NCBI RefSeq assembly: GCF_003334785.1
Contig: NZ_QOWV01000001.1
From: Escherichia coli
Lineage (GTDB): Bacteria; Pseudomonadota; Gammaproteobacteria; Enterobacterales; Enterobacteriaceae
Length of the DNA: 64,000 nucleotides
Reading direction: 5' to 3' (one strand)
Each line of letters begins with the position of its first letter. Within the stretch, counting starts at the first letter, position 1. The translations under genes and the position numbers were made by a program. Below, one piece after another: positions 24,250 to 24,465 of this stretch. A model generated the notes under the pieces. That model worked only from the letters and a program-made list of their open reading frames with translations. It had not been told where the DNA came from and ran no database searches.

Positions 24250-24465
24250 TGTGAATGTAGGTCGCATTCGGCACTTATTGTCGGATGCGATGCTTGCGCA
24301 TCTTATCCGACCTACGAATCGCATCGAATCTGTAGGCCAGATAAGGCATTTTCGCAGCATCCGGCACTTATTGTCGGATGCGATGCTTGCGCATCTTATC
24401 CGACCTACAAATCGCATCGAACCGTAGGCCGGATAAGGCGTTTACGCCGCATCCGGCAAATAGTT
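24250..24465. repeat. Tandem REP/BIME cluster
   Basis: An approximately 100-bp unit (cggcacttattgtcggatgcgatgcttgcgcatcttatccgacctac...) occurs twice, with gccggatgcggcg-type REP ends. Confidence 0.8.

Follow-up and report, generated by a model that had tools for sequence, protein, structure and literature searches.

The genes ybhJ, which encodes a putative hydratase on the plus strand, and ybhC, which encodes an outer-membrane lipoprotein on the minus strand, converge on a spacer of 233 nt (24241-24473) in the stretch of DNA analysed here, which is 64,000 nt long and is called the window in this report. The 601 bases around the array described below are 100% identical to those of MG1655-type genomes, and the window is E. 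coli K-12-like DNA. In the K-12 RefSeq annotation, ybhJ corresponds to 803503-805764, and that record gives no feature between ybhJ and ybhC.

The spacer contains a tandem repeat of REP elements, the parts of which are listed in Table 1. Two units can be distinguished, unit 1 [24274-24366], of 93 nt, and unit 2 [24367-24458], of 92 nt. They are identical in 86 of 93 aligned columns, and their alignment has one indel of 1 nt. Each unit is composed, in this order, of a linker, a z2 REP, a second linker and a y REP, and a y-REP remnant precedes unit 1. A direct-repeat search aligned segment 24264-24328 to 24357-24421 (65 nt, 97% identity, spacing 93) and segment 24332-24366 to 24424-24458 (35 nt, 89% identity, spacing 92). 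In a self dot plot, 41 10-mers are shared at an offset of 93, compared with a maximum of 4 in 2000 shuffled sequences. The first-pass annotation had proposed a tandem duplication of a REP-containing module at this place between the two convergent genes, to be checked by dot plot, and both analyses bear this out; the unit length that it gave, about 100 bp, has to be corrected to 93 and 92 nt. Tandem Repeats Finder, run on the window with three parameter sets, reported no array. At the orthologous site of E. albertii the same program found a period of 93 with 5.1 copies and 91% matches, and the null result in the window is therefore attributed to a sensitivity limit for arrays of two copies.

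Table 1 Features of the ybhJ-ybhC spacer and of the reading frames and RNA-family match that overlap it.
Feature	Position	Strand	Description
ybhJ stop codon TAA	24238..24240	+	Left boundary of the spacer; open reading frame list and K-12 RefSeq annotation
Lead spacer, 15 nt	24241..24255	.	Small hairpin possible with the y remnant
y-REP remnant, TGTAGGTCGCATTCGGCA	24256..24273	+	GTAGG foot and last 11 nt of a y REP; interior missing
Head-to-head linker CTTATT, unit 1, 6 nt	24274..24279	.	
z2 REP no. 1	24280..24315	-	Variant GTAGGTCGGATAAG; GTAGG foot on the minus strand; intact hairpin, -19.4 kcal/mol
Tail-to-tail linker no. 1, GAATCGCATCGAATCT, 16 nt	24316..24331	.	
Interior y REP no. 1, degenerate	24332..24366	+	Four substitutions relative to the terminal y; three broken stem pairs
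Head-to-head linker CTTATT, unit 2	24367..24372	.	
z2 REP no. 2	24373..24408	-	Identical to z2 REP no. 1
Tail-to-tail linker no. 2, AAATCGCATCGAACC, 15 nt	24409..24423	.	
Terminal y REP no. 2	24424..24458	+	Agrees with the y half of the Rfam naRNA4 consensus at all aligned bases
Spacer to the ybhC stop codon, 15 nt	24459..24473	.	
ybhC stop codon	24474..24476	-	Right boundary of the spacer; open reading frame list and K-12 RefSeq annotation
135-aa open reading frame, non-coding	24010..24417	-	First 62 codons through the REPs; remainder antisense to the 3' end of ybhJ
58-aa open reading frame, non-coding	24251..24427	+	Runs through the same repeats
Rfam RF02564 (naRNA4) match	24335..24405	+	60.7 bits, gathering score 59.5; interior y, linker and z2 REP no. 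2

The y-REP remnant is found in every REP-bearing allele, including that of E. albertii. Its 3' end matches the 3' end of the y REP at 10 of 11 positions, a match that was equalled in 16 of 2000 shuffles, and it would correspond to a y REP that has undergone an internal deletion. We also considered whether the lead spacer and the remnant together might have remained from the left terminator hairpin that the REP-free allele (described below) possesses; this idea was abandoned because the local alignment was no better than that of shuffled sequences (equalled by 145 of 2000).

The array can be described as a series of REPs in alternating orientation, y(+), z2(-), y(+), z2(-), y(+), with GTAGG or CCTAC feet at 24257, 24311-24315, 24332, 24404-24408 and 24424. 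The y and z2 types were assigned by covariance-model alignment to the y-linker-z2 consensus, to which z2 matches through compensated changes in the stem. There are four full REP hairpins, of which one, the interior y, is weak, with a predicted folding energy of -8.7 kcal/mol compared with -20.9 kcal/mol for the terminal y; the REP hairpins other than the interior y lie between -19 and -21 kcal/mol. The linkers, which were classed by position and length only, are short, at 6 and 15-16 nt, and no match to the IHF consensus WATCAANNNNTTR was found in 24241-24473. By definition, BIME-2 elements consist of inverted y and z2 REPs with short linkers, occur in tandem copies and vary among strains in the number of copies found at any one locus (Ton-Hoang et al. 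2012, PMC3333891). At this site, alleles of one, two and five units occur, together with alleles that have a single y REP or no REP. We are therefore confident in assigning the ybhJ-ybhC feature to the BIME-2 type, as an array formed of a y-REP remnant and two tandem units.

Both units carry the z2 variant GTAGGTCGGATAAG, and z-type REPs at other loci of the window read GTAGGCCTGATAAG. The core of the tail-to-tail linkers, AATCGCATCGAA, is common to both of them and has no other occurrence in the 64-kb window. Since the z2 variant and the linkers are specific to the locus and common to both units, the two units, as judged from these shared features, arose by local duplication. The 72-nt interior junction between them is single-copy in the 2,997 genomes that have it, with at most 8 genomes showing two copies; one of these, S40, proved on inspection to have a normal two-unit spacer. 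Two REP pairs might instead have been inserted independently at one site, given that REPs are dispersed and that the window has at least four other REP loci. Such a double insertion is very improbable: the variant and the linkers that the units have in common were not seen at the other loci of the window, and every allele, like each of the five E. albertii units, keeps a constant period of 92-93 nt.

The first-pass annotation had also suggested a comparison of copy number at this site across strains, which was carried out as a census of 5,426 complete E. coli genomes based on BLAST summary counts and on about 130 listed rows. About 51% of the genomes have two units, about 39% have one and about 10% have none. 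The two-unit allele was recognized by an interior junction of the K-12 type at 95% identity or more, present in 2,781 of the 5,426 genomes. Queries made of a perfect y REP, linker and z2 REP are not usable as counts, since their two pieces merge to 100% coverage in one-unit alleles. A further 216 genomes matched the interior junction at 93% over 58 nt, and one of them, EC71, was inspected. Its spacer of 141 nt consists of the z2 REP and linker of unit 1 joined to the terminal y, and EC71 is thus the outcome of a deletion from y to y in the two-unit allele. The allele of O157 and ST131 has 140 nt and lacks exactly one unit; by subtraction, this form would account for some 1,876 genomes (about 35%). 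The one-unit alleles thus have at least two independent forms. No allele with more than two units was seen in E. coli among the matches listed (about 130 rows).

Fresh duplications were found as well, in rare strains. Strain Z1322HEC0006 has two 93-nt units of the EC71 type that are 100% identical, and strain 1919D3 has two 92-nt units of the O157 type that are also 100% identical. The two-unit state must therefore have had at least three independent origins, and the one-unit state exists in at least two kinds.

The REP-free allele, with a spacer of 69 nt, was counted in 553 of the 5,426 genomes. It has three intrinsic-terminator-like hairpins, compared with 0.4 expected, and at least one of them faces each gene. 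In some REP-free strains the ybhJ-ybhC spacer also holds an IS200C element. In E. coli AR_0372 (sequence L007), IS200C occupies 2531-3310, with tnpA at 2741-3199, just after the second terminator-like hairpin; judging from rows of the REP-free query with coverage of 75% or 25%, there may be a few dozen alleles interrupted by IS200C or otherwise.

The series extends to other species, which were compared in one scan of species-representative genomes. The type strain of E. albertii has five 93-nt units, with the lead, the CTTATT linker and the linker family of K-12. Escherichia sp. E1V33 has two units, and its ybhC shares 92.2% identity with that of K-12; E. whittamii and a divergent representative of "E. 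coli" have one unit each. In Escherichia sp. MOD1-EC7003 (L014), the spacer between ybhJ and ybhC has just one REP, a y that does not differ from the E. coli terminal y, and it is possible that this single REP represents a minimal or founder state of the array. Citrobacter koseri has no REP at the site, which shows one hairpin followed by a run of T. As the alleles compared here show, the site repeatedly gains and loses whole units of 92/93 nt in Escherichia.

In the five-unit array of E. albertii (1481-1954 of sequence L009), the third and fifth z2 copies have paired substitutions in columns 9 and 19 and in columns 10 and 18. Each pair disrupts the standard REP helix and is compensatory if an alternative inner helix, in which 5-10 pair with 18-23, is assumed. 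The alternative helix was equalled by 5 of 500 shuffles; it was defined after the changes had been seen and is represented by two sequences only. The pattern could be the product of templated, quasi-palindrome mutation.

The duplication had been taken in the first-pass annotation as a sign of local recombination or expansion activity. That the site is active holds: whole units have been gained and lost in O157 and ST131, in EC71, in Z1322HEC0006, in 1919D3 and in E. albertii. The window's own duplication is not recent. A recent tandem duplication limited to one lineage, for example a laboratory event in K-12, would mark current instability, and fresh duplications with identical copies do occur here in other strains. 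For the window this is extremely improbable. Its units differ at 7 of 93 columns, the same allele is carried by about half of the E. coli genomes counted above, and the interior y of E1V33 has the same three degenerate substitutions as that of E. coli. By these comparisons the K-12-type duplication is old. With the degenerate interior y common to E1V33 and E. coli, the duplication either predates the split of the two lineages or has crossed between them. The loop of the z2 REP reads TTGC in both K-12 units (24294-24297 and 24387-24390), TGAC in both units of E1V33 and TGGC in O157 and E. albertii. The loops are thus homogenised within arrays and differ between lineages, which points to gene conversion between units and indicates concerted evolution within arrays.

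As a mechanism, we propose that the repeated REPs would pair out of register, either by slippage during replication or by unequal recombination, and that the number of units would change in this way. The unit of the one-unit allele lies between GCATTCGGCA, at the end of the remnant, and GCATCCGGCA, at the end of the y REP, which form a near-repeat of 10 nt; the first duplication could have used this 10-nt segment, GCATYCGGCA, common to the remnant and to the terminal y. Pairing between y REPs is the step to which one deletion product, that of EC71, can be mapped from its junction. An alternative to such pairing, or a helper in it, could be TnpA-REP, the REP-associated transposase. It cuts REPs and linkers at C^T, recombines BIMEs and assembles tandem BIMEs in vitro, and its substrates require GTAG and a mismatch in the stem, the in vitro cleavage having been obtained with other loci (PMC3333891). 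GTAG is present at every REP of the ybhJ-ybhC array. Slippage or RecA recombination and the action of TnpA-REP would both fit the data as the cause of the change in copy number.

Two open reading frames run across the array (Table 1). The first-pass annotation had described the longer one as a minus-strand reading frame of 135 amino acids with an internal repeat of 28 residues; the reading frame exists, and its repeat consists of 20 identical residues at a period of 31 residues, not of 28. A real repeat-containing protein would be conceivable on the strength of an ATG-initiated frame of 135 codons. There is practically no chance that it is one: over two thirds of its length it runs antisense to the coding sequence of ybhJ, scans of Pfam and NCBIfam gave no match, and a collection of about 15 billion predicted proteins does not contain its exact sequence. 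Furthermore, the one-unit and REP-free alleles lack its start codon together with the first 31-62 codons, so that it disappears with the array. Protein-family scans of the 58-aa frame were likewise empty, and its exact sequence is absent from the same collection. Neither the 135-aa nor the 58-aa frame is a gene, and the first-pass annotation was right to regard the longer one as spurious. Its description as a typical annotation artefact does not hold up in practice, since the RefSeq genomes sampled have nothing annotated between ybhJ and ybhC and the frame is missing from the collection of about 15 billion proteins. An open reading frame over this array should not be called a gene, and current pipelines already skip it.

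One segment of the array scores above the gathering threshold of the Rfam family naRNA4 (Table 1), and two other partial matches, at 41.7 and 37.3 bits, fall below it. The naRNA4 model derives from the y-linker-z2 module of the array REP325, a generic BIME-2 module, and for this reason any BIME-2 unit scores with it. A functional paralogue of naRNA4, that is, a discrete HU-binding, nucleoid-associated small RNA from the plus strand of 24335-24405, would find some support in this score, in the y-linker-z2 layout of two hairpins, which the naRNA4 paper calls necessary (PMC4550694), and in the sense orientation of the segment in the 3' untranslated region of ybhJ. We consider it improbable nonetheless. 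The model is generic, as another unit in the window scores 78.4 bits. In the alignment of the ybhJ-ybhC unit, the z2 hairpin is intact and the y hairpin contains three non-standard pairs. A scan of the K-12 spacer showed no promoter-like site, the unit is missing from about half of the E. coli genomes, and a search for expression data found none. HU binding and DNA condensation by a discrete RNA are known for REP325 only (PMC4550694). The naRNA4 match at ybhJ-ybhC is best taken as a generic match to a REP module, which confirms the class of the element and gives no evidence for a small-RNA gene.

The higher-scoring y-linker-z unit belongs to a second BIME of the window, at 56017-56137 on the minus strand, which has three REPs and lies just after the end of a gene. 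Inverted REP pairs are also present at 34076-34137 and 50780-50842, and each of them is at the same time a match of about 43 bits to the Rfam small RNA ES036 (CssrF), which looks like another family that matches REP modules. Other RNA features of the window are a molybdenum-cofactor riboswitch at 35388-35532 on the plus strand (103.6 bits), tRNA genes at 1-73 and 209-281 on the plus strand at the start of the window, and an RtT-family match at 8-175, also on the plus strand, that overlaps the first tRNA and extends into the spacer between the two.

The array lies at the 3' ends of two convergent genes, and its predicted RNA folds strongly in both directions, with -100.2 kcal/mol (z -7.05) on the plus strand and -114.4 kcal/mol (z -8.38) on the minus strand. 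The scan of the K-12 ybhJ-ybhC spacer found no terminator-like site. For REPs, the reported effects are stabilisation of the upstream mRNA, attenuation of transcription and insulation of supercoiling (PMC3333891; Espeli et al. 2001; Khemici and Carpousis 2004), and gyrase cleavage is enriched in BIME-2, chiefly in y REPs (PMC6379681). Hairpins on both strands at the 3' ends of the convergent transcripts would stabilise these ends and attenuate transcription, and the array would replace the terminator-like hairpins of the REP-free allele and offer gyrase sites between the converging units. By analogy, the array probably has the roles reported for BIME-2 arrays. Such effects would be of use in the spacer of a convergent gene pair. 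The interior y is perhaps a poor substrate for REP-binding proteins because three of its stem pairs are broken and its hairpin is weak. The literature yielded no experimental data on the ybhJ-ybhC array, and neither ybhC nor ybhJ is mentioned in two supplementary files of the gyrase-mapping paper (PMC6379681).

The distance from the ybhC stop codon to the start of the terminal y is 15-16 nt, which is borderline with respect to a limit of about 15 nt, within which, as Liang, Rudd and Deutscher reportedly found in 2015, REPs depress translation. A more far-reaching role is doubtful, though conceivable: in REP-bearing strains, the array may be the sole element that forms the 3' ends of ybhJ and ybhC, standing in for the pair of terminator-like hairpins of the REP-free allele. 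The number of units (0, 1, 2 or 5) might then tune, heritably and reversibly, the read-through, the antisense overlap or the local supercoiling between ybhJ and ybhC, and perhaps also gate the release of a naRNA4-like, HU-binding RNA from the 3' untranslated region of ybhJ.

The array is thus an ordinary member of a class of elements that has already been described, and variation in copy number is a published property of BIME-2. As a standard BIME-2 array, it has little importance beyond housekeeping. Its alleles nevertheless form a natural series at one orthologous site, with REP-free, single-REP, one-unit, two-unit and five-unit states, with old and fresh duplications and with a mapped y/y deletion. 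This series is a possible test bed for the effect of BIME copy number on convergent transcription and for the enzyme behind the gain and loss of units.

Compared with the BIME-2 elements of E. coli, which have alternating y and z2 REPs, short linkers and tandem units, lie between genes at gene 3' ends and vary in copy number among strains, the ybhJ-ybhC array has the same organization and differs in nothing essential. Small differences can be noticed: its z2 REP is a compensated variant, with GTAGGTCGG... in place of GTAGGCCTG..., and it has both a degenerate interior y and a y remnant at its start. The closest described relative is REP325, the BIME-2 array between yjdM and yjdN on which naRNA4 is based, which has six 77-bp units and a tested role in the nucleoid (PMC4550694). 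Both arrays have the y-linker-z2 module, and one ybhJ-ybhC unit exceeds the naRNA4 gathering score; the ybhJ-ybhC array, however, has only two units, one damaged y hairpin and a y-to-z2 linker, CTTATT, that takes the place of the "l" linker of REP325 in the Rfam alignment and is 6 nt shorter. BIME-1 or RIB/RIP elements, composed of y, a long L linker with an IHF site and z1, also place an inverted REP pair at the ends of genes. They are single-copy and have a long, conserved IHF-binding linker, whereas the ybhJ-ybhC array is tandem, has linkers of 6 and 15-16 nt and lacks the IHF consensus. In the REPIN doublets of Pseudomonas and other bacteria, inverted REP pairs likewise evolve as a unit and are associated with a domesticated Y1 transposase, the RAYT. 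That model, however, describes the dispersal of doublets to new loci, while the ybhJ-ybhC array expands and contracts in place, as an orthologous array across the genus.
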